Assembly: GCA_013153405.1 (NCBI GenBank)
Contig: JAADEM010000037.1
Location: 2,202-66,201 of the forward strand
From: Chlorobiota bacterium
GTDB taxonomy: Bacteria > Bacteroidota > Bacteroidia > Bacteroidales > Marinilabiliaceae
Length of the DNA: 64,000 bases
Direction: 5' to 3'
Shown: in pieces, positions 4,893 through 55,445 of the stretch
How positions within the stretch are numbered: the first letter of the stretch is position 1
Layout: each line of letters opens with the position of its first letter
The notes under the pieces: model-generated
Database searches by the model: none
What the model was told of the DNA's origin: nothing
Seen by the model: the letters and a program-made list of their open reading frames with translations, nothing else
Made by a program: the position numbers and the translations under genes

Positions 4893-5200
4893 TAAAAAAG
4901 CCCTCTGTTTAATACTTATAAAGTATTTATATCCAATTAAGATTTTGTTGTTTTTCCCTTTTTCCTGAAATCATTCATATGCTTTATATGACATATGTCA
5001 AGGCTTTATGCCAATTGTTCCGATGCTGAGATTAATCATTTTTTCGTCACATTGAATTGGCGAATTTTGCCTTGTCCTGCTTCAGTTACCTGACTGCTCA
5101 GGTTCTTAATGTGGACATTATGGTTATTAATACGTAATTTTTGATAAATGGTTCCAAAAACCTGATTAAATACTTAGAATGTTACATAAAAGTCGTTGAT

Positions 5201-6112
5201 ATGATAAATAAATTAATTGCAAATATGCTTCCGTTTTTCCCCAAAAAGCTAGTTTGGGTTTTTTCAAAAAGATATATAGCAGGTCAGAATCTTGATGATG
5301 CAATTAAGGTTTCAAAACAGTTGAATAGCAAGAAAATGATGATTACAGTTGACCTGTTGGGAGAATTTATTGAAGACCTTAATCAGGCAACTGAAAATAA
5401 AGAAGAGTATTTAAGAATAATAGATCGTTTTGAATCGGAAAAAATAGATGGCAATTACTCTCTTAAGCCAACTTCATTCGGATTACTGATTGATAAAAAT
5501 GTGTGTTATGAAAATATAAAGGAAATTGTTGCCAAAGCAGCCTCATACAATAATTTTGTAAGAATTGACATGGAGGATTCGCCTTGTGTTGATCTTGAGA
5601 TTGAGCTTTACAGAAAGCTTAAGGCAGAGTTCCCAAAAAATGTAGGACTGGTATTTCAGGCATATATGCGCCGTACTATGAAGGATATTGAAGACCTGAT
5701 GGATATCCATTCTGAAGAAGCTCCTAATAATTTCAGGCTTTGTAAAGGTATTTATGTTGAGCCGAAGGAAATCGCATTTAAGAATTATGAGGAGATAAAT
5801 GAGAATTATATTAAGATACTGGATTATCTTCTCAAGAATAAAATATACGTAGGTATTGCAACACACGATAAGCCTCTTGTTAATGCAGCTTATAGATTGA
5901 TAGAAAAATATAACGTACCGAAAAACATGTATGAATTCCAGATGCTTTACGGTGTAACACCGGAGCTTCGCCAAAGCATTGTTGATAAAGGTCACAGAAT
6001 GAGGGTTTATGTTCCGTTTGGTCAGGACTGGTTTGGTTACAGTACACGAAGATTAAAAGAGAATCCTAAAATTGCAAGTCAGATAATAAAGGCATTGTTT
6101 TTCAGAGGTTAG
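5201..6112 (+). CDS. Proline dehydrogenase family protein (stand-alone PRODH)
   Basis: Track ORF 5141-6112. Motifs FSKRYIAGQNLDDAI, TVDLLGE, RLCKGIY and YVPFGQDWFGYSTRRLKENP are typical of PRODH. I prefer the ATG at 5201 (MINKLIANMLPFFPKK) over the TTG at 5141. Confidence 0.8.
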   Translation: MINKLIANMLPFFPKKLVWVFSKRYIAGQNLDDAIKVSKQLNSKKMMITVDLLGEFIEDLNQATENKEEYLRIIDRFESEKIDGNYSLKPTSFGLLIDKNVCYENIKEIVAKAASYNNFVRIDMEDSPCVDLEIELYRKLKAEFPKNVGLVFQAYMRRTMKDIEDLMDIHSEEAPNNFRLCKGIYVEPKEIAFKNYEEINENYIKILDYLLKNKIYVGIATHDKPLVNAAYRLIEKYNVPKNMYEFQMLYGVTPELRQSIVDKGHRMRVYVPFGQDWFGYSTRRLKENPKIASQIIKALFFRG

Positions 6113-6129
6113 TAAGTTAAAGACCAAAT

Positions 6130-6174
6130 AAAAAGGGTGTCCCAAAAGCTTTTGCTATCCGGACACCCTTTTTG
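6130..6174. terminator. Bidirectional rho-independent terminator hairpin; minimal member of the GGGTGTCC/GGACACCC palindrome family
   Basis: AAAAAGGGTGTCC-loop-GGACACCCTTTTTG sits between convergent genes, with an A-run on one side and a T-run on the other. Confidence 0.75.
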
Positions 6175-6191
6175 TTATTTTATGAATGAGA

Positions 6192-7028
6192 TTAATGTTC
6201 TACTTTATGTCCGAAAACCTGTGATTCGATAAGTGCAAGTGTATAGATTTGAGATCCACCGGCTAATGAAGACCATACATCATTAACATATTCTTTACCT
6301 GTTTTGTCTTTTCCGCTTTCGTAGGCAGCATTCAGGTCAGTATCTTTATTCAGGTGTACAACATAAACAAGAGTAAGCGGTTTTCCTGAAACTATTTCAT
6401 TGAATGAATACTCTTTGCCTGATGCATCTTTTACTTTGAAATCGGGCCATTTTTTTCCATACAGATATTTGTAATGGTCAGGGTTACTGTTTTTCTTGGG
6501 TTTGCCGTTGTTTATTTTTTTATTATTGGTTTTACCCTTTTTAATATAATTTTTTGCCAGATCTTCAAATTTTGAATATTCATAATATTTTCCATCGGTA
6601 GTAACAGTTTTTCTTTTGCCGCATGTAAGAAAAGCCTGTTCGTTAATACCTCTTTCAGCAATGTCGAAGCCACCCCAGGCAGAACCTGTGAATGTTCCGT
6701 TTTTGTCAAATAAGAATGCGTCTTTTTCATTGACGCCCAGTTTTATTATCTCTTCCGGTTGGCCGGTCGGAATATTATCGGGTGTACTTCCGAATGTAGC
6801 CTTTATTATTTTACCGGCTATTGTTTTCTTTTCCTTTGTTTCTCTCGACGGAACCATTTTTATTTCGGGCAGATAATAAAACTTTAAATCCGGATATTTG
6901 CTTTCGTCAAAAGTCGGGTTTTTCTCCCCCAGAAACAGTACAACAACATCGGGCTTGTACTTTATTTGGCTGAATAAGCTGCCCATTGCCATAAATAATG
7001 CTAATACTAATAATGTTAACTTTTTCAT
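6192..7028 (-). CDS. Secreted hypothetical protein
   Basis: ORF with signal peptide MKKLTLLVLALFMAMGSLFSQ. I recognise no family. Confidence 0.7.
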   Translation of the reverse strand: MKKLTLLVLALFMAMGSLFSQIKYKPDVVVLFLGEKNPTFDESKYPDLKFYYLPEIKMVPSRETKEKKTIAGKIIKATFGSTPDNIPTGQPEEIIKLGVNEKDAFLFDKNGTFTGSAWGGFDIAERGINEQAFLTCGKRKTVTTDGKYYEYSKFEDLAKNYIKKGKTNNKKINNGKPKKNSNPDHYKYLYGKKWPDFKVKDASGKEYSFNEIVSGKPLTLVYVVHLNKDTDLNAAYESGKDKTGKEYVNDVWSSLAGGSQIYTLALIESQVFGHKVEH

Positions 7029-7084
7029 GATTTTATTTTTAAATAATTAATAATTCAGATACTCGTTTTTCTGATTTATGTAAG

Positions 7085-7177
7085 TAAAAGTAATGTTACG
7101 GGATTAGCTTTATGGTTTAAATGAATATTCGTCGAGATAAAAATTCATATTCGTTAGGTTTTTTGTGATATTCGCAG
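7085..7177 (-). promoter_or_regulatory. Conserved promoter module, copy 1: three phased TATTCG boxes plus -7-like TACTTTTA
   Basis: Plus-strand TATTCG at 7126-7131, 7148-7153 and 7169-7174 (spacing 22 and 21 bp). The minus-strand -7-like box TACTTTTA is at 7092-7085, 34 bp from box 1 and about 57 nt upstream of the start at 7028. Confidence 0.6.
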
Positions 7178-7300
7178 AATCTCACATATTGTTAATAAAT
7201 TAAAGAATAAGGCTATATTGCTTTAATTAAAACTAAAATGAGATTGCTATATTGGAAGGTTGTATGCCGGTACACGTTGCTGGTCCGGTTATCAGTCCGT

Positions 7301-7358
7301 GAGGTGCCGCCTCCAAAAAAAAGCAGCACCTCGAGCGGAATGACAACTTTACGGACAG
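7301..7358. repeat. Degenerate nested hairpin related to the palindromic element family (putative terminator of 7378-10236)
   Basis: Inner stem is GAGGTGCCGC/GCAGCACCTC. It is followed by CGGAATGACAACTTTACGGACAG, which resembles the family arm CGGAATGACGACTTTTGGGACAT. Confidence 0.35.
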
Positions 7359-7377
7359 ATTTTTAGATGAATTGTTT

Positions 7378-10236
7378 TTATTGTTTAATTATTTTTATGA
7401 ATTCATCATGTTTGGTATCACTTTCTGTTTTTAATATATAAATACCTTTTTTCATATTGCTTAAATCCAGAACCTGAGTGGGAGAGGTTATTTTAGTAAT
7501 ATTTAAAATTTTTCCAGTAATGTCATATATTGTTATTTTTCCTGTTTTTAATTCTGTTTCAACAGTAAGTATATCATTGAACGGATTGGGATAAACTCTG
7601 ATGCCTTCTGTTTTCTGTTGAGCTATACCGGTACTTGCCTGTATGACATAAACTTTGAATTGTTCTGAAACTGAGTTTTTGCTTTCGTCTGTTGCAGTCC
7701 ATGTTATTGTATATTCGCCTGTTGTGAGAATTGCTCCATCTAAGGTGGCAGCATCATTAAAATTATTTGAGAGTACGAACGAGCAGTTGTCTGAGGCTAC
7801 TGCATCAAAGTTTGTACCCGAAATTGTATAATTACCGTTTTCGTCAGCTTCTACAGTTGTATCATCGGGGCAGGAAATTACCGGAGTCAGATTGTCCAGT
7901 ATCGTAACAATACATGCTTGATTGGTTTCATTGCCACTTCCGTCAGTCAGGGTTACTGTAACAGAATTGTCGCCAATAGCAGAACAATTAAATGATGTTT
8001 GGCTGACAGTCGTATCGGCTACTGAGCAATTATCTGTTGCTGATGATACAATCATTTCAGGCGTAAGCAGGGTCGTTCCATTTTCGTCAAGGAACAATGA
8101 CAGGTTCTGAACTTCAAGTGTTGGTGCAATATCATCTTTTACGGTAACCATAACATTCATGGTCGTGATATTACCTGATAAATCTTTTGCTGTCAGGGTG
8201 ATTGTATTATCCCCAAGGTCGGAATCAGAGAAAAGAGTCCGGCTCAATGTTGTATCTGTTACCGAACAATTGTCGGTTACATTAAATACAGAAGCGTATA
8301 ATGTTGCCTGCCCATCAGTGCCGAGGAACAGGGTGGCGGAAGTTTTGCCAATAACAGGTGCAATAGTATCGATAATACTGACTGTGCATGTTGTTTGCGT
8401 GGTATTGAAGCTGCCGTCGTTTATGGAGATGGATATTTCATTATTTCCTAAATCAGAAGGGCCGAATGAGTATTTGCTTAATGTAGTGTCAGTTCCTTCG
8501 CCCCAGCAATTATCCCATGCCGAAACTATCACATCCCGGTTTTTGATTGAGGCCGCACCTTCGTTGTCAAGGTACAGGGTCGTATCTCTGGCAGTCACTG
8601 ACGGTTTTATGGTGTCTATAACATAGGTGTGAACTTCAATAGAACTTGAGTGCAAGCAGCCGTCGGTAATCTCTAAATATTGTGTTAATTCGCCTTTGTT
8701 ACTGCAGTCAAAAGCAGATTGTTCCAGAGTTGAATCCTGTATTATTTCTTCATTTAATATTCCGAAATCAGAAACATACAGCGTAGCACTGCCAGTTGAG
8801 TCAAGATATAAATTGTAACTATCCCGTATGACTTGTGGAGCTTCATAATCGACATTTAATACAGCACTGTTAGAAAACCTGTTTCCTCCTTCGGTTATAA
8901 TTTCACAACGATACAGGTAATCATCGACTTCGGATGAGGTATAAACCTGAAGAGTGTCATTAGTGGCGCCGGAATATATCTCGTTATCGGTAATAGTATT
9001 ATAAACATCACCTCCATCAGAACTGTATTCCCATTGAAAAGTACCGGCATCTTTAGCTTGAATAGTGAAAATAACAGTATTATTATCGCATTCATCTAAA
9101 TTCTGAGGTTCTTCAAGAATTTCAAGAGTCATATTATTGTAAATATATATCTGATCTTCATCAAAAACAGCAGCAACTATCTCTTTGTCATCATCATTAT
9201 CGAGGTCGGCAATGCTTAACCCTACCGGAGTTCCAATGTTTGTGTCTATTTCTTCTTTTAGTGAGAAATTGGCATTCCCGTCATTTTCATACCATAGTAT
9301 TTTACCATTATTGCTGTCAGAAAAAACAATATCAAAGTCTCCGTCATTATCCACATCTGAAGCTATGGCAGAGTTTGGGTTGCTGAGATTGTCAGCAATA
9401 AGTATCTCCGAAGAAAAATTTCCGTTTCCATCGTTCTGTAACCATATCACTTTATCTCCGGCACAGGCAACAATATCAAAATCGGAATCTCCGTCCAGGT
9501 CCTCTGAATAAACATTAACAGCATTCAAAACAGAGGTTGATATTGTAATTTCGTTAAAATGATTAGTGCCGTCATTTTTATACCAAGCAATTTTGTTGTC
9601 GTTGTATGATGCTGAAATAACATCAAGGTAGCCATCTCCGTTAATGTCTTTCACTGTTACTGACCGGGCGAGATCAGCCGATGAAGAAATAATTTTTTGT
9701 GATGAGAAAGAGCCGCCAATATTTTCATACCATGCGATTTTGTCATCATTTTCTGAAGCAGAAACAAGATCAATGTCATTATCACCATCAATATCGATTG
9801 CATAAACATCGAATATTCCGTCGGCATATTCTGTTATGATTTTTTCAGATGAAAAATTACCGTATCCGTCATTCTCAAACCACACAATCTTTCCGTCATC
9901 ATGTGCAGTTCCAATTACATCAATATCGCCATCATTATCAATGTCGGCGTAATAACAGCAGAAAGTTCCGGTAACCTGTGTTGATATTATTTTCTGATCG
10001 GAAAATGTTCCGTCACCGTTATTGGCATACCACGCAATTTTATTGTCAGCACCGGAAGCTGAAATAATATCATAGAAACCATCATTATTTAAGTCGGCTG
10101 TGTTTACCGACCATATCTCATCTGCATATCTTAATTCAGAGCATTGTAGTATTTGTTTGTCGGCATAGTGTGTCTGAGAATTACCTTTAATAATGAAAAT
10201 AAAGATAATTAAGATTGAAAGTGTTATTTTTTTCAT
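7378..10236 (-). CDS. FG-GAP/VCBS-repeat beta-propeller + Ig-like + HYR-like domain protein with T9SS type-A C-terminal sorting domain
   Basis: Signal peptide present. Repeated D-x-D-x-DG-x-x-D...KIAWYENDG-G-F units are seen. HYR-like segment: PVISCPDDTTVEADENGNYTISGTNFDAVASDNCS. C-terminus RVYPNPFNDILTVE...GIYILKTE...IKIIKQ. Confidence 0.85.
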   Translation of the reverse strand: MKKITLSILIIFIFIIKGNSQTHYADKQILQCSELRYADEIWSVNTADLNNDGFYDIISASGADNKIAWYANNGDGTFSDQKIISTQVTGTFCCYYADIDNDGDIDVIGTAHDDGKIVWFENDGYGNFSSEKIITEYADGIFDVYAIDIDGDNDIDLVSASENDDKIAWYENIGGSFSSQKIISSSADLARSVTVKDINGDGYLDVISASYNDNKIAWYKNDGTNHFNEITISTSVLNAVNVYSEDLDGDSDFDIVACAGDKVIWLQNDGNGNFSSEILIADNLSNPNSAIASDVDNDGDFDIVFSDSNNGKILWYENDGNANFSLKEEIDTNIGTPVGLSIADLDNDDDKEIVAAVFDEDQIYIYNNMTLEILEEPQNLDECDNNTVIFTIQAKDAGTFQWEYSSDGGDVYNTITDNEIYSGATNDTLQVYTSSEVDDYLYRCEIITEGGNRFSNSAVLNVDYEAPQVIRDSYNLYLDSTGSATLYVSDFGILNEEIIQDSTLEQSAFDCSNKGELTQYLEITDGCLHSSSIEVHTYVIDTIKPSVTARDTTLYLDNEGAASIKNRDVIVSAWDNCWGEGTDTTLSKYSFGPSDLGNNEISISINDGSFNTTQTTCTVSIIDTIAPVIGKTSATLFLGTDGQATLYASVFNVTDNCSVTDTTLSRTLFSDSDLGDNTITLTAKDLSGNITTMNVMVTVKDDIAPTLEVQNLSLFLDENGTTLLTPEMIVSSATDNCSVADTTVSQTSFNCSAIGDNSVTVTLTDGSGNETNQACIVTILDNLTPVISCPDDTTVEADENGNYTISGTNFDAVASDNCSFVLSNNFNDAATLDGAILTTGEYTITWTATDESKNSVSEQFKVYVIQASTGIAQQKTEGIRVYPNPFNDILTVETELKTGKITIYDITGKILNITKITSPTQVLDLSNMKKGIYILKTESDTKHDEFIKIIKQ

Positions 10237-10268
10237 GTAAGTTCTTTTTATTTTTATATACGAAAATT

Positions 10269-10360
10269 TAAAGATATAGATGTTTTACTAATATATATAT
10301 AGTTAATTTATATCCGTAAGGAATGAATTGATATTTGCTGTGTTTTTTGTGATATTTGAA
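10269..10360 (-). promoter_or_regulatory. Conserved promoter module, copy 2
   Basis: Boxes TATCCG 10311-10316, TATTTG 10332-10337 and TATTTG 10353-10358 (21 bp spacing). The minus-strand -7-like TATCTTTA is at 10276-10269, 35 bp from box 1. Confidence 0.6.
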
Positions 10361-10520
10361 AAAAGACTGCTATGAGAAAAACATTCTTTTATTACTTGTT
10401 TAAAATTACTAAGTAACCAGAAAAACTGATAAAATGGGTGTATATATAGATAGTCATAGATAGTGAGTGATATCTTTTTCATGCCCGTAATATTTCCCGG
10501 TTAATTCATTTTCCGGTATG

Positions 10521-10562
10521 AAAAACGGAGATTGTCATTAAGTCTGGACAATCTCCGTTTTT
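10521..10562. terminator. Rho-independent terminator of 10582-12978
   Basis: AAAAACGGAGATTGTC-loop-GACAATCTCCGTTTTT; a perfect 12-bp stem with flanking A and T runs. Confidence 0.85.
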
Positions 10563-10581
10563 GTAATATCAGTTATTGTAT

Positions 10582-12978
10582 CTACTTCTTTATTATTTTT
10601 ATTAGTTCATTTCCTGTTCCGGAATTAACCTGTAGCAGGTATATTCCTTTTTTCAGATTGCTCATGTTAATTTTTTGAACAGTTCCATTTATTTTGATAT
10701 TTCTAATAACCTTACCTGTGATGTCGAGGAGATTTATCGAACAGGTGGTTTTCCCGGTTTTTATGCATAGTACATCAGAAACCGGATTCGGGAATACTTC
10801 AATATTCTTCAAATCTGTGTTTTCAATTGAGGTACTTGTAGAAACAACATATAGTGTGAATTGTCCTGATGTGTTGTTGCCAGCTTCGTCGGTAGCAGTC
10901 CAGGTAATATTGTATTCGCCTGTTCCAAGTTTTTCTCCATTAAGAGAAGAGCTGTTGTTATAGCTGTTGGTCAGAGTAACGCTGCAATTATCAGATGCCG
11001 AGGCATCAAACTCAGTTCCGTTTATGGTGTAATATCCATCAGCATCGGCTTCAACTGTTGCATCCGAAGGACATGATATAACTGGAGCAATGTCATCTAC
11101 AACCGTAACAATACAGGTGTCTTTTGCGGAGTTTCCGCTGTAATCACTTAATGTTGCTATAACCTGGTTGTGTCCGATATTTGAACAGTTGAACGAAGAT
11201 ATATTTAGAGTAGTGTCTGCAATGGCGCAGTTATCATTAGTTACTGTTACTATTTCTTTTGCCGAAACTGAAGCATTCCCGTCAGCATCAAGATAAATCT
11301 TTAAAGTATCAATTACAGACAACTCCGGTTTTATGCTGTCGGCAACATATACCGTAACATCATACTCGGCATTGTTGCTGCAGCCGTCTTCAACATAAAG
11401 TACCGTTGATTGATTTCCATTGTCGCCGCAGTAATAACGGACATCGCCTATCTCGGAGCTTGTAATACCGGTGGCATCATAAGCTCCAAAATATGAGCCG
11501 TCAATTTTTGGTGTTTCTCCTGATTCCCCGATGTAAGCAGTTGCGAAAGTTGTTGTGATCGTTGGTGCTTCGGTATCGATTAATATTAATGTTGTGTCAG
11601 ATGCTAAATAACCGCCGTCGTTTATTACCCAGCACAGGTACCTTGCTTTATCAAGGTCGGAAGAAACATTTATGGTAAGTGTATTTGTTTCTGTACCACT
11701 GTAAGTGGCATCGTCTGACAAAAATGTACTGCTACCGCCATTGTATTTAAGCCATTGATACGATGTGGCATCTTTTGCTTTTACGGTAATTGTTATTGTT
11801 CCTGATGAACATGAGTACAAAGTATCAACGGGTTGTTCAATTATTCCTAAAGTGTAGTTTTCGGCCCAGGCGACTTTATTTTCATTTCTTTTAGCCATAA
11901 CTACATCAATGTCTCCGTCATTGTCGATGTCTTTTGTGTATACTGACGGGGTTGCACCCTCATTATCACAAATAAGAATCTCTGAACTGAAACTTCCACT
12001 TCCTTTGTTCTCGAACCAAACTGTTTTTCCTGTATAACTTAGATTTGTACTGCAAACTATGTCGTTGTCGCCGTCGTTATCAAAGTCTGCTGCATAAGCC
12101 GAACTTGCACCATCAAGAGAGTTTGTTAAAATATTATATGATGAATAATCTCCGTTGCCGGTATTCTCGAACCATGCACATAAATTCTCACTGTATGATG
12201 TAAATAATATATCATCATCACCATCTCCGTCAATATCAATTGCAGAAACAGATGTGGGGCAGGAAGTGTCAAAAATAGTGTGACTGTTGGTAAAGTTTTC
12301 ATTTCCGTCATTTTCAAACCAGATCATATATTCGTCTCTCGAAGATGAAGTGATTATATCGAAATCACTGTCGTTGTCAATATCTGCAGCACAAATTGTG
12401 ATAGGAGCGTCAACCAATGATTCTGAAATTATTATTTCATCAGAGAAGTTACCGTTACCATCATTCCTGTACCATGCAATTTTGTCGTCATTGGCAGAGG
12501 CAGATAACACATCAATATTGCCGTCACGGTCCAGATCGATGGCATAAACAGCTCGGGCCCCGTCAGCATTGTCGTTTAATACTACTTCTTCAAAAGTGCC
12601 ACTGCCGTCGTTTCTGTACCATGATACTTTGTCATTATCGGACGAGGCAGATATTACGTCGATATCATTATCTCCGTCAAGGTCAGCAGCAAAAACGGAA
12701 ATAGCATTTGCTGCAGAATCGGATATTATAACCTGTGAAGTAAAGTGACCGGAGCCGTCGTTGGGGTACCAGGCAACCTTATTATCATCTATCGATGCCG
12801 ATATTATGTCTGCATAACCGTCTCCGTTAATGTCGGCTGCAAATATGGAATATGCTTCATCGGCGTAGTTTACGGTTCCGGGATTTGCTTCATGAATAGT
12901 ATCATTAAAACAAGTTTGTGACCAACTGTTTATTACATAAAAAAACAATAGTCCGAGGAAAAGTAAGATTCTTTTCAT
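10582..12978 (-). CDS. FG-GAP/VCBS-repeat + Ig-like + HYR-like protein with T9SS type-A sorting domain (tandem paralog of 7378-10236)
   Basis: Same architecture as 7378-10236. The HYR-like segment PVISCPSDATVEADADGYYTINGTEFDASASDNCS aligns with its neighbour. C-terminus VFPNPVSDVLCIK...GIYLLQVN...IKIIKK. Confidence 0.85.
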   Translation of the reverse strand: MKRILLFLGLLFFYVINSWSQTCFNDTIHEANPGTVNYADEAYSIFAADINGDGYADIISASIDDNKVAWYPNDGSGHFTSQVIISDSAANAISVFAADLDGDNDIDVISASSDNDKVSWYRNDGSGTFEEVVLNDNADGARAVYAIDLDRDGNIDVLSASANDDKIAWYRNDGNGNFSDEIIISESLVDAPITICAADIDNDSDFDIITSSSRDEYMIWFENDGNENFTNSHTIFDTSCPTSVSAIDIDGDGDDDILFTSYSENLCAWFENTGNGDYSSYNILTNSLDGASSAYAADFDNDGDNDIVCSTNLSYTGKTVWFENKGSGSFSSEILICDNEGATPSVYTKDIDNDGDIDVVMAKRNENKVAWAENYTLGIIEQPVDTLYSCSSGTITITVKAKDATSYQWLKYNGGSSTFLSDDATYSGTETNTLTINVSSDLDKARYLCWVINDGGYLASDTTLILIDTEAPTITTTFATAYIGESGETPKIDGSYFGAYDATGITSSEIGDVRYYCGDNGNQSTVLYVEDGCSNNAEYDVTVYVADSIKPELSVIDTLKIYLDADGNASVSAKEIVTVTNDNCAIADTTLNISSFNCSNIGHNQVIATLSDYSGNSAKDTCIVTVVDDIAPVISCPSDATVEADADGYYTINGTEFDASASDNCSVTLTNSYNNSSSLNGEKLGTGEYNITWTATDEAGNNTSGQFTLYVVSTSTSIENTDLKNIEVFPNPVSDVLCIKTGKTTCSINLLDITGKVIRNIKINGTVQKINMSNLKKGIYLLQVNSGTGNELIKIIKK

Positions 12979-13005
12979 ATCTGTACTCTTTATGATTAAT
13001 CGGTT

Positions 13006-13097
13006 TAAAAATAAAAAGTGTGGACATTTTATTTATGAAGAATGATTATTTGCCTGATTTGAATTGATATTCGTTGGTGTTTTTATAATATCCGCAA
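13006..13097 (-). promoter_or_regulatory. Conserved promoter module, copy 3
   Basis: Boxes TATTTG 13047-13052, TATTCG 13068-13073 and TATCCG 13089-13094 (21 bp spacing). The minus-strand -7-like TATTTTTA is at 13013-13006, 34 bp from box 1. Confidence 0.6.
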
Positions 13098-13127
13098 AAA
13101 GCCCTCCGGATCAGAAGGGCTTTTTTT
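13096..13127. terminator. Rho-independent terminator of 13142-13669
   Basis: AAAAAGCCCT-loop-AGGGCTTTTTTT lies directly downstream of the minus-strand stop. Confidence 0.7.
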
Positions 13128-13141
13128 AAGGTATTATGTTG

Positions 13142-13657
13142 TTATTTTTTTGTTGCTGTGATATTCATTAGTATTTCTATTGTGCCAATTTCTTCATCAT
13201 TTGTAGTCAATGTATAGGCCGCATAGATAGTATTTTCGTTGTTATCGTATCTTCCGTGGTACATCTTACCGTCAAGCTCTGCTGAATCATAACCTGTAAG
13301 TGTCCATACCGTACCATCCTCTTCAAAAGTCCTTCTTGAGATATTAAAGGCAAATCCGTTTGAAGCTTCTGTTATTTCATACAATTCAAGAAACTTTTCA
13401 TCCCCATCTTTGATAGCTAACCCGGTAATTTCGCCGCCATCATCTATGCTAAAATTAATACTGCTTTCATCTAACTTTACCCACTCATCATTTTCATTTT
13501 TAACAAATGAGATAGCAGAACCTGAATAACTGCCAAATGCCTGATCTCTTACGTCGTTTAAGGCATCTTCAAGATCGTCAACAAAGGAACATGAGGAGAA
13601 TGATAATGCCATAATTAAAATACTCACTGTAATAGTCAAATAATTCCTTTTCATCAT
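13142..13657 (-). CDS. Small lipoprotein, unknown function
   Basis: Track ORF 13142-13669. The lipobox-like sequence LSFSSCSF follows a hydrophobic h-region. The start is probably one of the MMKRNYL methionines (13657 or 13654). Confidence 0.65.
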   Translation of the reverse strand: MMKRNYLTITVSILIMALSFSSCSFVDDLEDALNDVRDQAFGSYSGSAISFVKNENDEWVKLDESSINFSIDDGGEITGLAIKDGDEKFLELYEITEASNGFAFNISRRTFEEDGTVWTLTGYDSAELDGKMYHGRYDNNENTIYAAYTLTTNDEEIGTIEILMNITATKK

Positions 13658-13722
13658 AATTGCATACATTTTAAAGTTATTATTAATAGTTATAAATGAA
13701 TTCCATTTGTAAATTCAACAGT

Positions 13723-13815
13723 ATAAATGTATGCTTCCCTTATTCCGGATAATTATTAAATGAGTATTCGCAAAGTCACAAATTCATATTTGCTGTGATT
13801 CTTATGAAATTTGTT
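13723..13815 (-). promoter_or_regulatory. Conserved promoter module, copy 4
   Basis: Boxes TATTCG 13765-13770, TATTTG 13787-13792 and AATTTG 13808-13813 (22 and 21 bp spacing). The minus-strand -7-like TACATTTA is at 13730-13723, 35 bp from box 1. Confidence 0.55.
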
Positions 13816-13823
13816 TTTTTAGA

Positions 13824-13858
13824 TAAAAAAAAGGATGACAATATTTTGCCATCCTTAT
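13824..13858. terminator. Rho-independent terminator of the DUF1858 gene
   Basis: AAGGATGACA-loop-TGCCATCCTT; on the minus strand it is followed by a T-run. Confidence 0.7.
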
Positions 13859-13878
13859 AAATGAACGTTACGTGTTTT

Positions 13879-14127
13879 TTACATCTTTTTTACATCAACG
13901 TGGGTGTCAGGTCCAGCTTCAGGGTTGTCTTTGAGGTCGTTCAGCTCTTTTACGAACATTGCTATCTCCTGGTCGCTGAAACCTTTTTCTTTTGCAGCTT
14001 CTTCCAGAGTTCCCCAAATAGGTTCACCACAGGCAATGCATTTAATTCCTTTTACACTCAGATAACGTACTGAGCCTGGAACCAGATCCACCAGCTCTTC
14101 TATTGTGATATCTTTTGTTACTTCCAT
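13879..14127 (-). CDS. DUF1858 domain protein (hybrid-cluster-protein-associated redox disulfide domain)
   Basis: 82 aa. TIEELVDLVPGSVRYLSVKGIKCIACGEPIWGTLEEAAKEKG matches the DUF1858 C-x-x-C pattern. Confidence 0.7.
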   Translation of the reverse strand: MEVTKDITIEELVDLVPGSVRYLSVKGIKCIACGEPIWGTLEEAAKEKGFSDQEIAMFVKELNDLKDNPEAGPDTHVDVKKM

Positions 14128-14186
14128 AGTTATTGATTTTTATTTTTTGCAAAAATACAATTTAAGCCGGAAAGAAAAACAGGTGT

Positions 14187-15542
14187 TTAATGTTTATACG
14201 GGATTGTAAAGAAGAAAGTAGCACCTTCGCCCGGTTTTGATTTTACCCATATCTCACCACCAAGAGCGAGTACAATACCTTTTGATATCGGAAGTCCTAA
14301 TCCGGTGCCTTTTTTTACAATGTTTTTATTTTCAATCTTAACAAAACGATCAAAGATATTTGTCTGTAATTCTTCAGGTATGCCATAACCGTTATCTTTA
14401 ATGAAAAACTCAATAAAATTATCTTTTATACTGAATCCAACTTTTATTTCACCTTTGTCAAGGTGGTTTATTGCATTGTTAATAAGATTTATCAATACCT
14501 GCTTCAGCCGATCCATGTCAGAATTAATAACAACAGAGTCAATATTTTCATCATTGGTAAATATGATGTTGATATTGTATTTTTCTTTTAGTGTAAGTTC
14601 GTAGATTTGTTTAAGTTCATCAATTAGTATTTTCAGTTTAAAAGGTTTTATACTGAGTTTGAGCTGACCTGATTCAATGACTGAAAAGTCTAAAATGTTT
14701 TTTATTATGCTTAGCAGGTAGTTTCCGCTTTTGTAGATATTGGTTAAATATTTGTTTTTCTCATTGTCATCACTGTAGGCTTCGTACATTAATAGTTCGG
14801 TAAATCCCATTATTGCATTTAACGGAGTACGTACTTCGTGACTCATGTTGGCAAGGAAGTTTGTTTTAAGTTTGTCGGCTTCAATTGCTTTTTGTTTTGC
14901 CTGGTTCAACTGTTTTATTTTATCCTGTAATGATAATTGTAGTTTTTTTTGCTTGGCTATGGTTTTAGCCAGTTCGTTTAATAAAATGGCAAGTGGAACT
15001 GAAGACAGTAAACATATTATTTCGGTACTTGATGCAACTGTAATCCAAAAAGGAACAGTATACTGGGTTATCTTCATGTTGCCGAAGAAGTTATAATGTA
15101 ATCCCAGTGCTATTGTTAAGAATAAAATAACGTTTATAAGTAAACTGCCTGCAGCTCCCCGGATTCCTAATAGCAGCGACGAAAGAATAGATGCTGCAAT
15201 AATATAGCTTAATCCGTTTGCCTTTGGCCCAACTAAAAATAAAAGTGCCAGGCCGACTATGTAAGCCATTACTATAATAGATGATATCCTTACGAAAAAG
15301 GAGAATTTATTGGCAATGGATAGTATAATTATGAAAAAATATACAATTGTATTAATTGCAATAAGTGCATAGTTCCCGGTTTGGAGAGCCAGATAACTGC
15401 TGAATATATAAGGAGGTAATCCTGAAAATATTATTATCAGGAATATACTTTTCAGCACTCTTTCTCGCCAGTATAATACTCCGTCATCAGGAGTGAGTTT
15501 TGTGTTTTCAAAAAATCGTATTATTGCTTTCCCCACCATCAT
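14187..15542 (-). CDS. Membrane sensor histidine kinase (multi-TM N-terminus, HisKA + HATPase_c)
   Basis: H-box FLANMSHEVRTPLNAIMGF, N-box LINLINNAINH, G-boxes DNGYGIP and GTGLGLPISKGIV. About six hydrophobic helices lie N-terminally. No response regulator is present in the window. Confidence 0.85.
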   Translation of the reverse strand: MMVGKAIIRFFENTKLTPDDGVLYWRERVLKSIFLIIIFSGLPPYIFSSYLALQTGNYALIAINTIVYFFIIILSIANKFSFFVRISSIIVMAYIVGLALLFLVGPKANGLSYIIAASILSSLLLGIRGAAGSLLINVILFLTIALGLHYNFFGNMKITQYTVPFWITVASSTEIICLLSSVPLAILLNELAKTIAKQKKLQLSLQDKIKQLNQAKQKAIEADKLKTNFLANMSHEVRTPLNAIMGFTELLMYEAYSDDNEKNKYLTNIYKSGNYLLSIIKNILDFSVIESGQLKLSIKPFKLKILIDELKQIYELTLKEKYNINIIFTNDENIDSVVINSDMDRLKQVLINLINNAINHLDKGEIKVGFSIKDNFIEFFIKDNGYGIPEELQTNIFDRFVKIENKNIVKKGTGLGLPISKGIVLALGGEIWVKSKPGEGATFFFTIPYKH

Positions 15543-15627
15543 TTCGAGAATTACGTAAATAAGTACCGAAAGTTAGTTTTTTTACTTAAAATATTGCGTT
15601 TGATTGATGAAATGTTGTTTTTTGAAT

Positions 15628-16920
15628 TTAAACTGATTTTGTTGCTTTAGGGTAAAAAATAAATTGCAGAAAACTCCGCATGAAAGAAAACAGTAGCATA
15701 GCCAGCCAAAGCGCATGGTTATGCAGTGTATTGCCTGCCAAATAATATGTAATAAAGAATACAAATGTTGCTGCAAGCATGGTATATTTCATGAGTTTTG
15801 AAGCAGTAGTACCGATGTAAACCCCGTCCCATATGTAAGAAGCAAAGCTTATGAGCGGTAGCGTTATTATCCAGGGCAGATACTTCCGGCCTTCAGTAAG
15901 TACGTTTTCATGTTTTGTGAAAAACACGAGTAATTCATCACCGGCAAAATAATATAATGCAGAAAAAAGAATTCCGAAACCTAATCCCCAGAACATTAAA
16001 AGGCGGATGACTTTTTTCAGGTTTGCATAATCTTTTGCTCCGAAAAATTTTCCCACAAGAGCTTCTGCCGCATAGGCAAAACCGTCGAGGAAATATGAAA
16101 AAAGAAAAAGAAACTGCAGTAATGCACTGTTTGCGGCAAGAATGATGTCGTTAAAACCTGCTGATTCAGATGTGAAAAATGTGAATACCAGAATTATACA
16201 GGCTGTGCGAATAAAAATATCACCGCTTACATTAAGAAAGTTTTTGATGCCTTTCCCGTCTATTATTGCTGAAAAGCTGAATTCATTAAGAATGTATTTG
16301 TATTTTTTCAGGAAAAAAATTACAGCCATTAGCAGTCCGAAATATTGAGAAATCATTGAGCCAAGAGCTACTCCATCCACTTTCATTTCAAAGCTTCGTA
16401 CAAATAAAAAAGACAAAAGAATATTGACAATATTTACCGTTACTGCAATAATCATTGGGTAAATGGCATTTTGCATACCAAGGAACCATCCGTAAAATAC
16501 CATTAACGAAATTGCTGCCGGGGCAGCCCATATCCGGATGTAAAAATATTCGCGGGCCAGATTTTTCACTTCTGGCGAACCATCAAGAATAAGGAAGCTT
16601 ACTTTTTCAATGCCTGTTTGTAAAAGCAATAACAGTAAAGCTCCTCCTATTGCAAGTAATAATCCACGAAACAAGGTGTTTGCCATTCCGGAGGAATCCT
16701 TTTTTCCGTATTCCTGAGCTGCAATTCCACTAATGCTCATTCTTAAAAAAGCAAAACCCCAGTACACAAGATTGAATATAACACCGCCGAGAGCAATAGC
16801 TCCCATGTATACAGCCGAATCGAGATAGCCCATCAGGTGCATATCTACCATTCCCAGAAGTGGAACTGTTAGATTTGTTAGTATGTTGGGCAATGCAAGT
16901 TTTAAAATGTATTTATTCAT
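15628..16920 (-). CDS. MATE family efflux transporter
   Basis: LALPNILTNLTVPLLGMVDMHLMGYL N-terminus with about 12 TM segments, a typical MATE/DinF-like pattern. Confidence 0.8.
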   Translation of the reverse strand: MNKYILKLALPNILTNLTVPLLGMVDMHLMGYLDSAVYMGAIALGGVIFNLVYWGFAFLRMSISGIAAQEYGKKDSSGMANTLFRGLLLAIGGALLLLLLQTGIEKVSFLILDGSPEVKNLAREYFYIRIWAAPAAISLMVFYGWFLGMQNAIYPMIIAVTVNIVNILLSFLFVRSFEMKVDGVALGSMISQYFGLLMAVIFFLKKYKYILNEFSFSAIIDGKGIKNFLNVSGDIFIRTACIILVFTFFTSESAGFNDIILAANSALLQFLFLFSYFLDGFAYAAEALVGKFFGAKDYANLKKVIRLLMFWGLGFGILFSALYYFAGDELLVFFTKHENVLTEGRKYLPWIITLPLISFASYIWDGVYIGTTASKLMKYTMLAATFVFFITYYLAGNTLHNHALWLAMLLFSFMRSFLQFIFYPKATKSV

Positions 16921-17120
16921 CGGCTGTATGTGAAAATGTATAGTTCTCAGTTATTCATGTTTATTGTTTTTCAGTGGTAAATAACGTACTTTTATGTGTA
17001 AAAGTACCAGCCCCGCAAAAAATTTTCTTAAAAAATGTTTATTACAAAAACATTTCATAACAGATGTTGTTTTATACGTACAAACTAAACTAAACAGTAA
17101 TAACTTTAAAAACTATAATT

Positions 17121-17696
17121 ATGAAATTTGAATTACCGCCGCTGCCCTATGCATTAGATGCATTGGAGCCGCATATTTCAAGAACAACATTAGAGTACCA
17201 TCACGGGAAACATCATCAGGCTTATGTGAATAACCTGAATAATCTTATTCCTGGAACTGAATTTGAAAATGCAGACCTTGAAACTATTATTAAAAAAGCC
17301 GATGGTGGAATTTTTAATAATGGTGCGCAGGTGTGGAATCATACTTTTTATTTTAATCAGTTTTCACCCAATGGAGGAGGAGAGCCCGAAGGAGCTCTGG
17401 CTGAAGCTATCAACAAGTCGTTTGGTTCGTTTGAGACATTTAAGGATGAATTTTCAAAGGCTGCTGCAACTCTGTTCGGCTCAGGTTGGGCCTGGCTTGT
17501 GAAAAAAGATGATGGTTCCCTTGAAATTGTCAAGGAGAGTAATGCCGGCAATCCTATTCGCAACGGTTTAACTCCGGTATTGACTTGTGATGTATGGGAA
17601 CATGCTTATTATCTTGATAAGCAGAATAAGCGTCCTGACTATATTGCTGAATTCTGGAAAGTTGTAGACTGGAAAGTTGTAGGCGGAAGATATTAA
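17121..17696 (+). CDS. sodB: Superoxide dismutase (Fe/Mn family, Fe-type signature)
   Basis: LPPLPYALDALEPHISRTTLEYHHGKHH, AQVWNHTFYF, DVWEHAYYLD. Confidence 0.9.
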   Translation: MKFELPPLPYALDALEPHISRTTLEYHHGKHHQAYVNNLNNLIPGTEFENADLETIIKKADGGIFNNGAQVWNHTFYFNQFSPNGGGEPEGALAEAINKSFGSFETFKDEFSKAAATLFGSGWAWLVKKDDGSLEIVKESNAGNPIRNGLTPVLTCDVWEHAYYLDKQNKRPDYIAEFWKVVDWKVVGGRY

Positions 17697-17716
17697 TAAT
17701 TTGAGTATAAAATAAG

Positions 17717-17792
17717 AAAAGAGGGTGTCCGAAAAGTAAAACAGCCACGTCATTGTGGTAAGGAATGACGACTTTTAGGACACCCTCTTTTC
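17717..17792. repeat. Nested-palindrome intergenic element, copy A (short form); acts as a bidirectional terminator between sodB and 17844-19175
   Basis: AAAAGAGGGTGTCCGAAAAGTAAAACAGCCACGTCATT-GTGGTAAGG-AATGACGACTTTTAGGACACCCTCTTTT. The outer stem is GAGGGTGTCC/GGACACCCTC and the inner stem is CGTCATT/AATGACG. Confidence 0.8.
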
Positions 17793-17843
17793 TTAAGTGT
17801 TTAGGTTTAAATGACCTGTATTGTTTTTATCGAGATGATGTAT

Positions 17844-19175
17844 TTATTGTTTTATAAACTTAACATTAATCTCGTTGCTTTTAATTATGTAAATACCACC
17901 GGGGAGTTCTGAGATATTTAATTTTGAAGTGTGATTATCTGTCCATGCCGACCTCAGAACAAGATTTCCGGTCATATTATAAACATTAATTACAGTTCCG
18001 GGAATAACGGTGTTGTCGGAATATACCCATATAAAATCTTTTGCAGGCACAGGAAACAGTTTGATGTCGTTGCTTTTTACATCTTGTCTGCTTGTGATAA
18101 TGGCAGGATCAGAATTAAGTACAAATCCCAGAGTGAAATACCAGGAGCCTGAAGCATCAAAAGGATCAGGAAAATTCGGATAGGTTGTTTCTGTTATAAA
18201 ATATGAATGTGAATTTGCTGTTGTAATTCCTTTTGAATATGGATTAACTCCCTTGCTGATATGTAAAATGCCTTCACCTCCGTATTGAATAGCCAGATAA
18301 TATGAACTGTCGGCCTTAAGTGTAAGTTCCGATTCTGGAATATTTGCATAAAAGGTGTCTCTTTTAACTGCGGGGATATTTATTTCATCAGAGATATATA
18401 TAAGCCTTGAATTATTCAAGCCTTCATATACCGCAAATTTAACCGGACCTGAGGCATCTGAGGTGTCTGTTTTTATTCCTATGTGTCTTACCATTATATC
18501 GCCGGTGCCGGGTACGCTTAATAGAGATGAAGCCACTAATCCTTTGTCTATTTCCTGATAATCGGTAGTGTTGAAATCAAAAATATCGTTGTACGGTACA
18601 ATTTCTTCGTCTATAACTTCTCCTTTCAGAATCATACCTGTATTAAAAGCCCAGTTACCTTCTGTACTTACAGGATTAGGAAAGAACGGATATACATTGT
18701 TGTCTTTGAACAGAGTGTTATCCAGATCTGTTGCAATACCGTCATTGACGGCACTGCTTTGTTTTTGTACATATAAGTAATCACTACCCATGTACATTAA
18801 TGAGATATAGTATGTTTTAGATGCTTCCAGTTTTTGAACCCCTTTTTTTACGGGAGTTGTGATTGTTGCATTAGCGCCCCCAGTAAAACTTATCTCATCT
18901 GATCTGAAGATTAAATACAGACCTGCTTCCGGAAAATCCTTATATTCGTATATTCCCATATAAATTTTCCCGCTTTGAGATAGGTCCCCTGTCTGAACCC
19001 CGATTTCGGTAATATAGTAATCGTCACCATCAGGCATAGTGAAAGGTTGAAGAATAAGAAGTCCCTGTTGTATAGATTGTGTTTCTGTGCAGTCAAATTT
19101 TATTATGTCGGTTTGAGCATAACATTGCAGAGCTGCAAATAAAAACAGAATTGTAAGGGTTGGTTTTGTTTTCAT
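17844..19175 (-). CDS. T9SS type-A sorting-domain protein, unknown function, with an internally duplicated ~170-aa module
   Basis: Signal peptide present. C-terminus LFPVPAKDFIWVY...GGIYIIKSN...KFIKQ. Two similar halves both end in YP(F/N)FP(N/D)P...(G/S)(N/S)W(A/Y)F..G(M/F).L. Confidence 0.75.
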   Translation of the reverse strand: MKTKPTLTILFLFAALQCYAQTDIIKFDCTETQSIQQGLLILQPFTMPDGDDYYITEIGVQTGDLSQSGKIYMGIYEYKDFPEAGLYLIFRSDEISFTGGANATITTPVKKGVQKLEASKTYYISLMYMGSDYLYVQKQSSAVNDGIATDLDNTLFKDNNVYPFFPNPVSTEGNWAFNTGMILKGEVIDEEIVPYNDIFDFNTTDYQEIDKGLVASSLLSVPGTGDIMVRHIGIKTDTSDASGPVKFAVYEGLNNSRLIYISDEINIPAVKRDTFYANIPESELTLKADSSYYLAIQYGGEGILHISKGVNPYSKGITTANSHSYFITETTYPNFPDPFDASGSWYFTLGFVLNSDPAIITSRQDVKSNDIKLFPVPAKDFIWVYSDNTVIPGTVINVYNMTGNLVLRSAWTDNHTSKLNISELPGGIYIIKSNEINVKFIKQ

Positions 19176-19417
19176 AATTAACAGGTTTAGATTGGTTTAA
19201 AAGTTAAGTGTTTGTTGTTTGTAGATTAATCAGTAATAAACGGGCCTGAGTTTTTTTGATGAAAAAAAATATAACAGCCAGTGTAGCAAAGTTTGTTTTT
19301 TTTTGACATAAATAAAAATTTTATATGATGTATTTTGATAAAAGTTAGTATGTTGGTCTTTGTTTTATCGTTATTTACATTAAGTTTGAAATGAAATATT
19401 TTATTTAAATCGTCATT

Positions 19418-19981
19418 ATGTTAAAAGATCTCATGCTGAAAAGCAGAAGCTACAGGCGTTTTTATCAGGAATACAAAGTGTCGGAGAATGATTTGGTTGA
19501 GTTGGTGGAACTTACTCGTTATTCTCCGTCGGCAAGAAATGCACAACCGCTGAAATATTTTTTATCGTGTGATGAAAAAACAAATGCAAAAATATTTCCG
19601 ACGCTTGCCTGGGCAGGATACCTGACAGACTGGCCCGGTCCGGAGGATGGAGAACGCCCCTCTGCGTATATAGTTATGCTGCTTGATACCGGGATTGCCG
19701 ATAATCAATATTGCGATGATGGAATTGCCATTCAGTCAATATTGCTGGGTGCAACAGAAAAAGGACTCGGTGGATGCACTATTGCTGCTATTGACAAAAA
19801 AAGGTTAAGAACTGAACTTAATATTCCTGAGAGATTTGAGATACTTTATGTGCTTGCTATAGGTAAACCTAAAGAGAAAGTGGTAATAGAAGATATGAAG
19901 GATAATGACTTTAAATATTGGCGCGACTCAGACGGAATTCATCATGTTCCCAAAAGAAGTATTAATGAAATTATATTATAA
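19418..19981 (+). CDS. Nitroreductase family protein
   Basis: RSYRRFYQEY...LVELTRYSPSARNAQPLKYFL, a typical nitroreductase N-terminus. Confidence 0.8.
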   Translation: MLKDLMLKSRSYRRFYQEYKVSENDLVELVELTRYSPSARNAQPLKYFLSCDEKTNAKIFPTLAWAGYLTDWPGPEDGERPSAYIVMLLDTGIADNQYCDDGIAIQSILLGATEKGLGGCTIAAIDKKRLRTELNIPERFEILYVLAIGKPKEKVVIEDMKDNDFKYWRDSDGIHHVPKRSINEIIL

Positions 19982-54749: not shown

Positions 54750-55445
54750 ATGCCTGATAACGGACTCGTTGCTGATATAAAGAATTTTCCGCAGTTATAC
54801 AATGTGTTGAGTGATGAAGACAAAGAGTATCTTCTGGCCAATCATTCGGTTAAATATTTTGCCAAAAATGAGAAAATATACAGGGAAGGCGACAAGCCTA
54901 AAGGATTGTTGTGCCTGGGCTCTGGGAAGGTAAAAGTTTATAAAGCAGGAATTGGCGGCAGAGAACAGATTGTAAGAATGGTGGCAGCTCCTAATTTTCT
55001 GGGATACAGAGCTCTTTTTGCAGAGGAAGCGCACATTGCATCGGCAGAGGCTATTGAAGATTGTGTGATTTATCATATACCAAAGGATGTTATTTTTAAA
55101 TTGATAGCCTCAAACAGAAAGGTTTGTAAGAATATTCTGAAATCGTTTGCCGTTGAACTTGGATTTACCCGATACCGAACAGTATCGCTTACCCAGAAGC
55201 ATATACGAGGCAGATTAGCTGAAAGCCTGCTGTTTCTGCGTGATATTTATGGTTTTAAAGATGATAACATAACTCTTGATGTACAGCTTTCGAGGGAGGA
55301 TATAGCGAACTTCTCGAACATGACAACATCGAATGCCATCAGAACTCTTTCTACTTTTGTTAATGAAAAGGTTATCGCAGTTGATGGCCGTACTATTAAG
55401 ATTGTGGATGAGCCGAAACTGGAGAGGATATCTAAGCTGGGATAG
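54750..55445 (+). CDS. Crp/Fnr family transcriptional regulator
   Basis: cNMP-binding-like N-terminal half (YREGDKPKGLLCLGSGKVKVYK). C-terminal HTH segment REDIANFSNMTTSNAIRTLS. Confidence 0.8.
   Translation: MPDNGLVADIKNFPQLYNVLSDEDKEYLLANHSVKYFAKNEKIYREGDKPKGLLCLGSGKVKVYKAGIGGREQIVRMVAAPNFLGYRALFAEEAHIASAEAIEDCVIYHIPKDVIFKLIASNRKVCKNILKSFAVELGFTRYRTVSLTQKHIRGRLAESLLFLRDIYGFKDDNITLDVQLSREDIANFSNMTTSNAIRTLSTFVNEKVIAVDGRTIKIVDEPKLERISKLG

Follow-up and report, generated by a model that had tools for sequence, protein, structure and literature searches.

A recurrent three-box promoter module, probably an activator array, upstream of four adjacent exported-protein genes in an environmental Bacteroidota genome

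Why should four adjacent genes encoding different exported proteins all be preceded by the same arrangement of short repeats? This question is raised by a 64,000-nucleotide (nt) stretch of metagenomic DNA from an uncultured marine Bacteroidota organism, hereafter the window, which is part of contig Ga0072504_105057 (84 kb) of Joint Genome Institute (JGI) metagenome 3300005095 and belongs to an NCBI metagenome-assembled genome (MAG) named 'Chlorobi bacterium' (locus tags GXO47). A preliminary description of this DNA had pointed to four minus-strand genes, each downstream of three phased boxes and an octamer resembling the -7 element of Bacteroidota sigma-A promoters, and had proposed that they form a regulon. 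We found that this module is real and non-random. Judged by its layout and conservation, an activator protein very probably docks here, which would make the module an ordinary kind of feature.

The module is ~92 nt long, and its four copies all lie on the minus strand of the window. M1 (7085-7176) lies upstream of a gene encoding a 278-aa secreted protein (ATG at 7028), and its boxes A (7168-7174), B (7147-7153) and C (7125-7131) all read CGAATAT. M2 (10269-10360), upstream of the gene for a 952-aa protein, has CAAATAT as boxes A (10352-10358) and B (10331-10337) and CGGATAT as box C (10310-10316). M3 (13006-13096) begins straight after a terminator (13096-13125) and precedes the gene for a 798-aa protein, with boxes A CGGATAT (13088-13094), B CGAATAT (13067-13073) and C CAAATAA (13046-13052). 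M4 (13724-13815), upstream of the gene for a putative lipoprotein of 175 aa, has boxes A CAAATTT (13807-13813), B CAAATAT (13786-13792) and C CGAATAC (13764-13770). The -7-like octamers, also on the minus strand, are TACTTTTA in M1 (7085-7092), TATCTTTA in M2 (10269-10276), TATTTTTA in M3 (13006-13013) and TACATTTA in M4 (13724-13731). All twelve boxes and all four octamers were located where the preliminary description had placed them.

A degenerate three-box pattern matched four times (2+2) in the window, against 0.00 matches expected from 100 dinucleotide-preserving shuffles. An unbiased repeat finder recovered the same four copies as a single family (D6; 42 nt, 67-76% identity). When a position weight matrix was built with each module left out in turn, the omitted module always ranked within the top four of ~128,000 positions on both strands. 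The best array outside the modules scored 9.4 bits in the 64 kb, compared with 42-53 bits for the four modules, in agreement with the earlier observation that the window holds no equally good copy elsewhere. Outside the box the units have diverged too far for Tandem Repeats Finder to call the array.

We then asked whether the module is found in related genomes, using homologs of the 278-aa protein, and of a sensor kinase encoded upstream of M4, to reach syntenic loci in other metagenomes and MAGs. Three such loci carry it: L120 (ENA ERZ23491057), with a 278-aa ortholog 57% identical to that of the window; L123 (ENA ERZ27262693), with a kinase 65% identical; and L124/L125 (JGI 3300005264 and GCA_029933425.1), with a kinase 57% identical. 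In each, the order is kinase gene, DUF1858 gene, terminator, module, gene for the 278-aa ortholog, and a proline dehydrogenase (Pro_dh) gene on the opposite strand; the three further genes that carry modules in the window are absent. The boxes of the orthologous modules start at 0, +21 and +42/43, and TACTTTTAC begins 40 nt after box C. In a four-way alignment the invariant elements were ACG.AT.TCA, ACGAAT, CG.A...TCATT and TACTTTTAC, and the spacers had diverged, reading for example GAATTTTTATCTCGA, GAACTACCCCCCCGG and GAATTAAACCTCCGG at one position. Conserved boxes and geometry with diverged spacers are the classical phylogenetic footprint of a cis-regulatory element. The preliminary description had made its reading depend on retention of the phasing and of the -7 spacing in orthologous loci, and both are kept in all three.

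The module is not found at every related locus. A further relative (L126) keeps the genes for MatE, kinase, DUF1858 and Pro_dh and lacks both the 278-aa gene and the module. Between its DUF1858 and Pro_dh genes lie simple repeats, (GGGTTTC)n followed by (CCTTTTA)n-like units (L126 11670-11790), which look like a deletion or replacement scar. In cultured Saccharicrinis (L129/L130) synteny is lost and no module was found, and none was present upstream of the more distant 278-aa homologs at loci L121 and L122 (45-48% identity).

Taken together, the four window modules and the three orthologous ones provide seven arrays and 21 units, with the consensus RCGAATATnMA. Counted from the first base of the box, C0 and A3 are found in 21/21 units, T4 in 20/21, A2 in 17/21 and G1 in 16/21. 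Conservation within a unit covers a single uninterrupted stretch of ~10-12 nt (positions -1 to ~+11), and an AT-rich spacer of 11-12 nt follows. On the coding strand, box A reads C[GA][AG]AT[AT]T followed by CAYAA, box B CRAATAT followed by SAATT, and box C CRRATAN followed by TCATT. The three positions are marked by distinct conserved flanks (ATCAYAAAAAC at A, SAATTY at B and TCATT at C). Boxes A and B start exactly 21 nt apart in 7/7 modules, including all four in the window, and boxes B and C 21 or 22 nt apart, which bears out the 21-22 bp spacing reported previously. Counted from the C of box C, the octamer TAnnTTTA begins at 39-40 nt in the seven modules, a distance equivalent to the 34-35 bp counted earlier on the plus strand. 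The distance from the octamer to the ATG is variable (35-64 nt), with an A-rich stretch before the ATG.

What kind of promoter could this be? Maps of transcription start sites (TSSs) in Flavobacterium place the sigma-A -7 box, TAnnTTTG, at -12 to -5, and also show variants around this motif (PMC9723704). TAnnTTTA matches 7/8 positions of this consensus; TAnnTTT is found at a fixed offset in 7/7 modules, with the final G replaced by A in every one. Direct reading of the seven modules found no -33 TTG 17-23 nt upstream of the -7 box, which weakly fits dependence on an activator. If the T of TAnnTTTA is taken as -12, the boxes would start at about -94, -73 and -52 from the predicted TSS, and the proximal box would span about -52 to -43; these positions replace those of -40, -61 and -82 given in the preliminary description. 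The geometry of the module is strictly conserved. The earlier interpretation of the boxes as a same-face activator array before a sigma-A-like -7 box was the best reading that we could find, and on this comparison of sequences a functional activator array before a sigma-A promoter is the probable explanation of the module.

The mechanism that we propose is as follows. Three head-to-tail sites of ~10 nt lie two helical turns apart, and so all on the same face of the DNA; the proximal site would end ~8-10 nt upstream of the place of the missing -33 element. A transcription factor encoded outside the window would bind the three sites cooperatively as a head-to-tail oligomer and would recruit or reposition RNA polymerase, so that the four adjacent exported-protein genes would be switched on together. 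The ancestral module of the 278-aa gene would have been copied, in this lineage, onto the three extra genes, which now lie between the DUF1858 terminator and the 278-aa gene.

Several observations weigh against this mechanism. A repressor or a nucleoid-type protein could use the boxes just as well, and many Bacteroidota promoters have no clear -33 element, so that its absence here is weak evidence. The organism is known from a metagenome contig alone, and the 64-kb window contains no gene for a LytTR, AraC or response-regulator protein. We also scanned public metagenome and genome collections, in which the source contig is not included, with the strict two-box pattern CRRATWTYAYA-N10-CRAATATSAAT. 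The scans returned 81 and 37 matches, all of which look like chance once box C and the -7 box are taken into the score, many of them lying inside long open reading frames (ORFs); no second, unlinked target emerged.

One locus encountered in this survey may be described separately. In a Saprospiraceae MAG (JBGCES010000531.1; L097, 3450-3548), an intergenic array of CGAATAT, CAAATAT and CGAATAT has exact 21-nt spacing, with CACTACC repeated in its flanks. A signal-peptide gene (ATG at 3611) follows 119 nt downstream of it, and TATCTTTA is placed 49 nt beyond the last box. We estimated a chance of ~10% of finding one such third box among the 118 pattern matches, and this array may be a distant analogue from a different order of Bacteroidota, or else a product of chance.

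The resemblance among the four window modules bears on their origin. They are pairwise 56-68% identical over 63 anchored nt, and M1 and its orthologs fall in the same range. M2 and M3, which precede the two paralogous genes, are 60% identical over this length with exact spacing; the modules appear to be under selection, because the attached proteins share only 36% identity and yet the boxes and spacing are kept. Descent from one ancestor, as opposed to independent origin, is suggested by the distinct conserved flanks of boxes A, B and C. The ancestral gene, that for the 278-aa protein, has M1 attached to it. M4 takes up the ancestral place, immediately behind the DUF1858 terminator, and opens with the AAAC..TCAT that is also seen in the relatives. 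A relic gene start, ATGAAAAAGATATCACTCACTATCT (10458-10483, minus strand), lies between M2 and the terminator of the 798-aa gene; it matches the beginning of the 952-aa gene at 81% identity and appears to be the trace of a past duplication or rearrangement in the cluster. We infer that the module was copied as genes were added at this site and that boxes and phasing have since been kept by selection. The preliminary description had held that duplication of a gene together with its promoter could not explain the sharing; the position-specific flanks instead make copying of the promoter module the likeliest origin, and selection would account for its persistence.

These same flanks and the relic gene start could be taken to mean that the modules merely survive, without selection, from local duplications of a single upstream region, or are a dispersed intergenic repeat, with no shared regulatory function. 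The flanks do argue for common descent of the four copies, and the relic does show past rearrangement. However, orthologous modules in three genomes keep boxes, spacing and -7 box while their spacers diverge, and M2 and M3 precede genes whose products have drifted to a protein identity (36%) at which neutral non-coding DNA would be randomised. The copies have no terminal repeats, and no further copy was found in the ~64 kb of the window and ~110 kb of related DNA. We therefore consider such a remnant or repeat very unlikely. An alternative sigma factor had also been suggested; as considered here, it would be of the extracytoplasmic function (ECF) type or sigma-54, and the boxes would form part of its recognition sequence. 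The systematic departure from TAnnTTTG, with A in place of G at the end of all seven -7 boxes, is what speaks for it. However, the boxes begin 39-82 nt upstream of the -7 box, beyond the reach of a sigma factor, and no ECF-type CGT -10 element and no sigma-54-type GG-N10-GC element was found between box C and the ATG in the seven modules. The sole element within reach is TAnnTTTA itself, with its match to 7/8 sigma-A positions, and we regard this explanation as very unlikely.

If the module is indeed a functional activator array before a sigma-A promoter, which class of factor would bind it? The length and spacing of the repeats, together with their predicted position, are closest to those of LytTR-type operators, and on this analogy we tentatively favour a LytTR-type factor, at somewhat less than even chances. 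Such operators have at least two imperfect direct repeats of 8-11 nt placed 10-13 nt apart (period ~20-22 nt); the 21 units have this form, with a spacer of 11-13 nt for a site of 9-10 nt. Tandem sites of the OmpR/PhoB kind have repeats of 6-7 nt every 10-11 nt, and no +10/+11 sub-repeat was found in the units, whose second halves are AT-rich and differ among boxes A, B and C. A regulator of the AraC/XylS type, whether a one-component protein, or a response regulator or hybrid two-component protein with an AraC DNA-binding domain (all of them common in Bacteroidota), would be consistent with the 21-22-nt period and the promoter-proximal position. The AraC I1-I2 and XylS (Pm) sites are direct repeats with a 21-bp period, the proximal site lying next to or overlapping the -35/-33 region, and AraC-type domains are abundant in Bacteroidota two-component systems. 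However, the pair of helix-turn-helix motifs in an AraC-type monomer usually gives rise to two conserved blocks separated by a helical turn, and the conserved part here is one contiguous block of ~10-12 nt; the 64-kb window also has no AraC gene. We regard such a regulator as unlikely. Slightly more doubtful is control of the four promoters by the neighbouring orphan MASE11 histidine kinase, with an unlinked response regulator, of the OmpR type or another, as intermediary. In 4/5 related genomes the genes for kinase and DUF1858 lie immediately upstream of the module-bearing gene, which favours such control. However, L126 retains the MatE-kinase-DUF1858 block but has neither the module nor its gene; synteny extends over the whole region (Pro_dh, CHU_C, PorP/SprF), so that the adjacency may be no more than this; and the Saccharicrinis kinase ortholog adjoins BipA. 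The units lack the 10-11-nt sub-repeat expected for OmpR/PhoB dimers, and the kinase core is closest to hybrid-type kinases such as TorS, BarA and LuxQ, rather than to the partners of LytTR proteins, which are of the LytS/AgrC types. The hint at this kinase in the preliminary description is weakened by these points, together with the lack of a response regulator in the 64 kb.

Three further candidates were tried and rejected. The only transcription factor found in the window is a Crp/Fnr protein (54750-55445), and we rejected it as the cognate regulator since this family binds palindromes and not direct repeats. An RNA element was rejected on an RNAalifold consensus of the seven modules with 0 pairs; a search of positions 5000-16000 against Rfam gave no relevant match at E <= 1, with one snoRNA match at E = 0.2 inside the 798-aa gene. 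An invertible promoter was rejected as no inverted-repeat pair is common to the four regions, which contain just the terminator hairpins and weak AT-rich pairs.

How far does the proposed regulon extend? The preliminary description had raised the possibility of a regulon of type IX secretion system (T9SS) cargo genes. That view found no support in the comparison, since the conserved ancestral carrier is the 278-aa gene, which is not a T9SS gene, and other cargo genes have no module. The module is absent from the T9SS-cargo gene at 17844-19175 (Por_Secre_tail) and from the CHU_C gene at the left edge of the window. Nor was it found upstream of two FG-GAP/HYR/T9SS homologs in other loci (L127 and L128). 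The latter comes from the same sample as the window, with a GC content of 34% compared with 39% in the window, and is probably from another organism.

The products of the four genes agree with those first described, namely two FG-GAP/HYR T9SS proteins and two small secreted or lipoproteins, as judged from domains, signal peptide and lipoprotein-like motif. On the minus strand, the order is the genes for MatE (15628-16920), the MASE11-HisKA-HATPase sensor kinase (14187-15542) and a DUF1858 / prismane-associated redox-disulfide protein (13879-14127), followed by the intrinsic terminator of the latter (13831-13856), M4, the 175-aa gene (13142-13669), M3, the 798-aa gene (10582-12978), M2, the 952-aa gene (7378-10236), M1 and the 278-aa gene (6192-7028). 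The module array is bounded upstream by the DUF1858 terminator, whose ortholog stands before the module in L123 and L124. The kinase had been described as immediately upstream of the cluster; it is indeed close by, but the DUF1858 gene intervenes between it and M4, the first module. Each gene had also been credited with a terminator of its own. A clear hairpin with a T-run follows three of the four, but the structure after the 952-aa gene is atypical: its hairpin (7296-7336, minus strand) is GAGGTGCTGC-T8-GGAGGCGGCACCTC, with the T-run in the loop and not behind the stem, unlike a canonical intrinsic terminator, and transcription could read through into M1 and the 278-aa gene. The 278-aa gene ends at a bidirectional terminator that it has in common with the proline dehydrogenase gene.

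Neither of the two small proteins matched any Pfam or NCBIfam family. A signal peptide was predicted in the 278-aa protein, and a lipoprotein-like ...SFSSC motif is present in the 175-aa protein, whose ORF may start four codons later (the JGI call is 171 aa). The family of the 278-aa protein is small: databases contain ~30 members, the majority of them found in metagenomes of hydrothermal and marine origin. An AlphaFold (AF2) model of the protein was confident, with a pLDDT of 84.6 and a pTM of 0.83, and a Foldseek search with this model gave no PDB match below E = 0.6 and no functional clue; the modelled fold may be undescribed. The 952-aa and 798-aa proteins, both with FG-GAP_3, HYR and Por_Secre_tail domains, are predicted T9SS cargo, and neither has close orthologs in the protein database. 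A different use of FG-GAP repeats was seen at L121 (655-5637), beside the 45%-identical 278-aa homolog, where an 1181-aa protein combines FG-GAP_3/UnbV_ASPIC repeats with a HATPase_c kinase domain and is followed by a sigma-54-dependent response regulator. With FG-GAP repeats as its putative sensor domain, this is an unusual architecture.

The window also encodes GldB and many T9SS sorting domains, and the best homologs of its kinase are from Labilibacter, Saccharicrinis and Carboxylicivirga. These features place the source in or near the Marinilabiliales (Bacteroidota). The block of MatE, MASE11 kinase and DUF1858 (the redox-disulfide domain associated with hybrid-cluster protein) is conserved in the window (13879-19981) and in L123, L124 and L126. 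Genes adjoining it are those for a Fe/Mn superoxide dismutase (window, L123 and L126) and a nitroreductase (window and L123); in L124, unrelated genes lie upstream of the kinase. From its gene content, the block may be a redox or nitrosative-stress sensing unit.

What would the module mean if this reading holds? As described, it would show how one promoter cassette can be reused to place newly inserted exported-protein genes under common control. In a broader and rather improbable extension, the array would be the operator of an uncharacterised Bacteroidota activator (for example the first LytTR-type factor with a defined site in the phylum), possibly fed by the MASE11 kinase and DUF1858 protein, and would control a lineage-specific surface and secreted set that grows by copying of the module. 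If true, this would be a promoter-cassette mode of regulon growth, in which the module is copied onto newly acquired genes. Almost no transcription-factor sites have been defined for environmental Bacteroidota, and the module offers a clean motif with which to fish out its regulator. The motif itself is new and its kind is well known; no general concept is changed, because activator arrays built from direct repeats at a 21-nt period are already familiar.

We compared the module with known systems. The PorY-PorX-SigP pathway uses an ECF sigma factor on T9SS-component genes in Porphyromonas and Flavobacterium (PMC4800418), and a motif with a CGT -10 box, SM6, has also been described (PMC9723704). 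The likeness to that pathway is that two of the four target genes here encode T9SS cargo; unlike it, the module has no ECF-type promoter and its conserved target is not a T9SS protein. With Bacteroidota sigma-A promoters (-7 TAnnTTTG at -12 to -5, -33 TTG), the modules share TAnnTTT in 7/7 cases at a fixed position, but differ in the A that ends the octamer in 7/7 and in the missing -33 TTG. AraC at I1-I2 and XylS at Pm resemble the modules in their 21-nt period and head-to-tail orientation and, with the predicted TSS, in a proximal site abutting the -35 region, but each of our units has a single block, not two a turn apart, and there are three units, not two.

The closest parallels are with LytTR operators, although RCGAATATnMA matches no published LytTR site that we found, the promoter is of the Bacteroidota -7/-33 type, and neither a LytTR gene nearby nor an autoregulated regulator operon was seen. 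LytTR sites are repeats of 9-11 nt lying 11-13 nt apart (PMC4847170), and in most cases LytTR regulators activate, from sites just upstream of -35 (PMC11347149); in the LytTR systems of S. mutans the repeat is 4-11 nt from -35 (PMC6193735). The operators of AgrA (P2/P3), ComE, PlnC/D, YpdB (at PyhjX) and BrsR/HdrR have repeats of 8-11 nt with gaps of 10-13 nt and a period of 20-22, as do the modules here. They also have AT-rich spacers and a proximal repeat a few nt upstream of the -35 equivalent, and usually serve activators; the modules are alike in this if the predicted TSS is correct. The YpdB site, GGCATTTCAT, resembles box A, which is CGGATTTCAT in L120 and CAAATTTCAT in M4. Operators with three LytTR repeats are known for RcoM1 and CoxC (PMC11347149), and their even spacing is like that of the modules described here.

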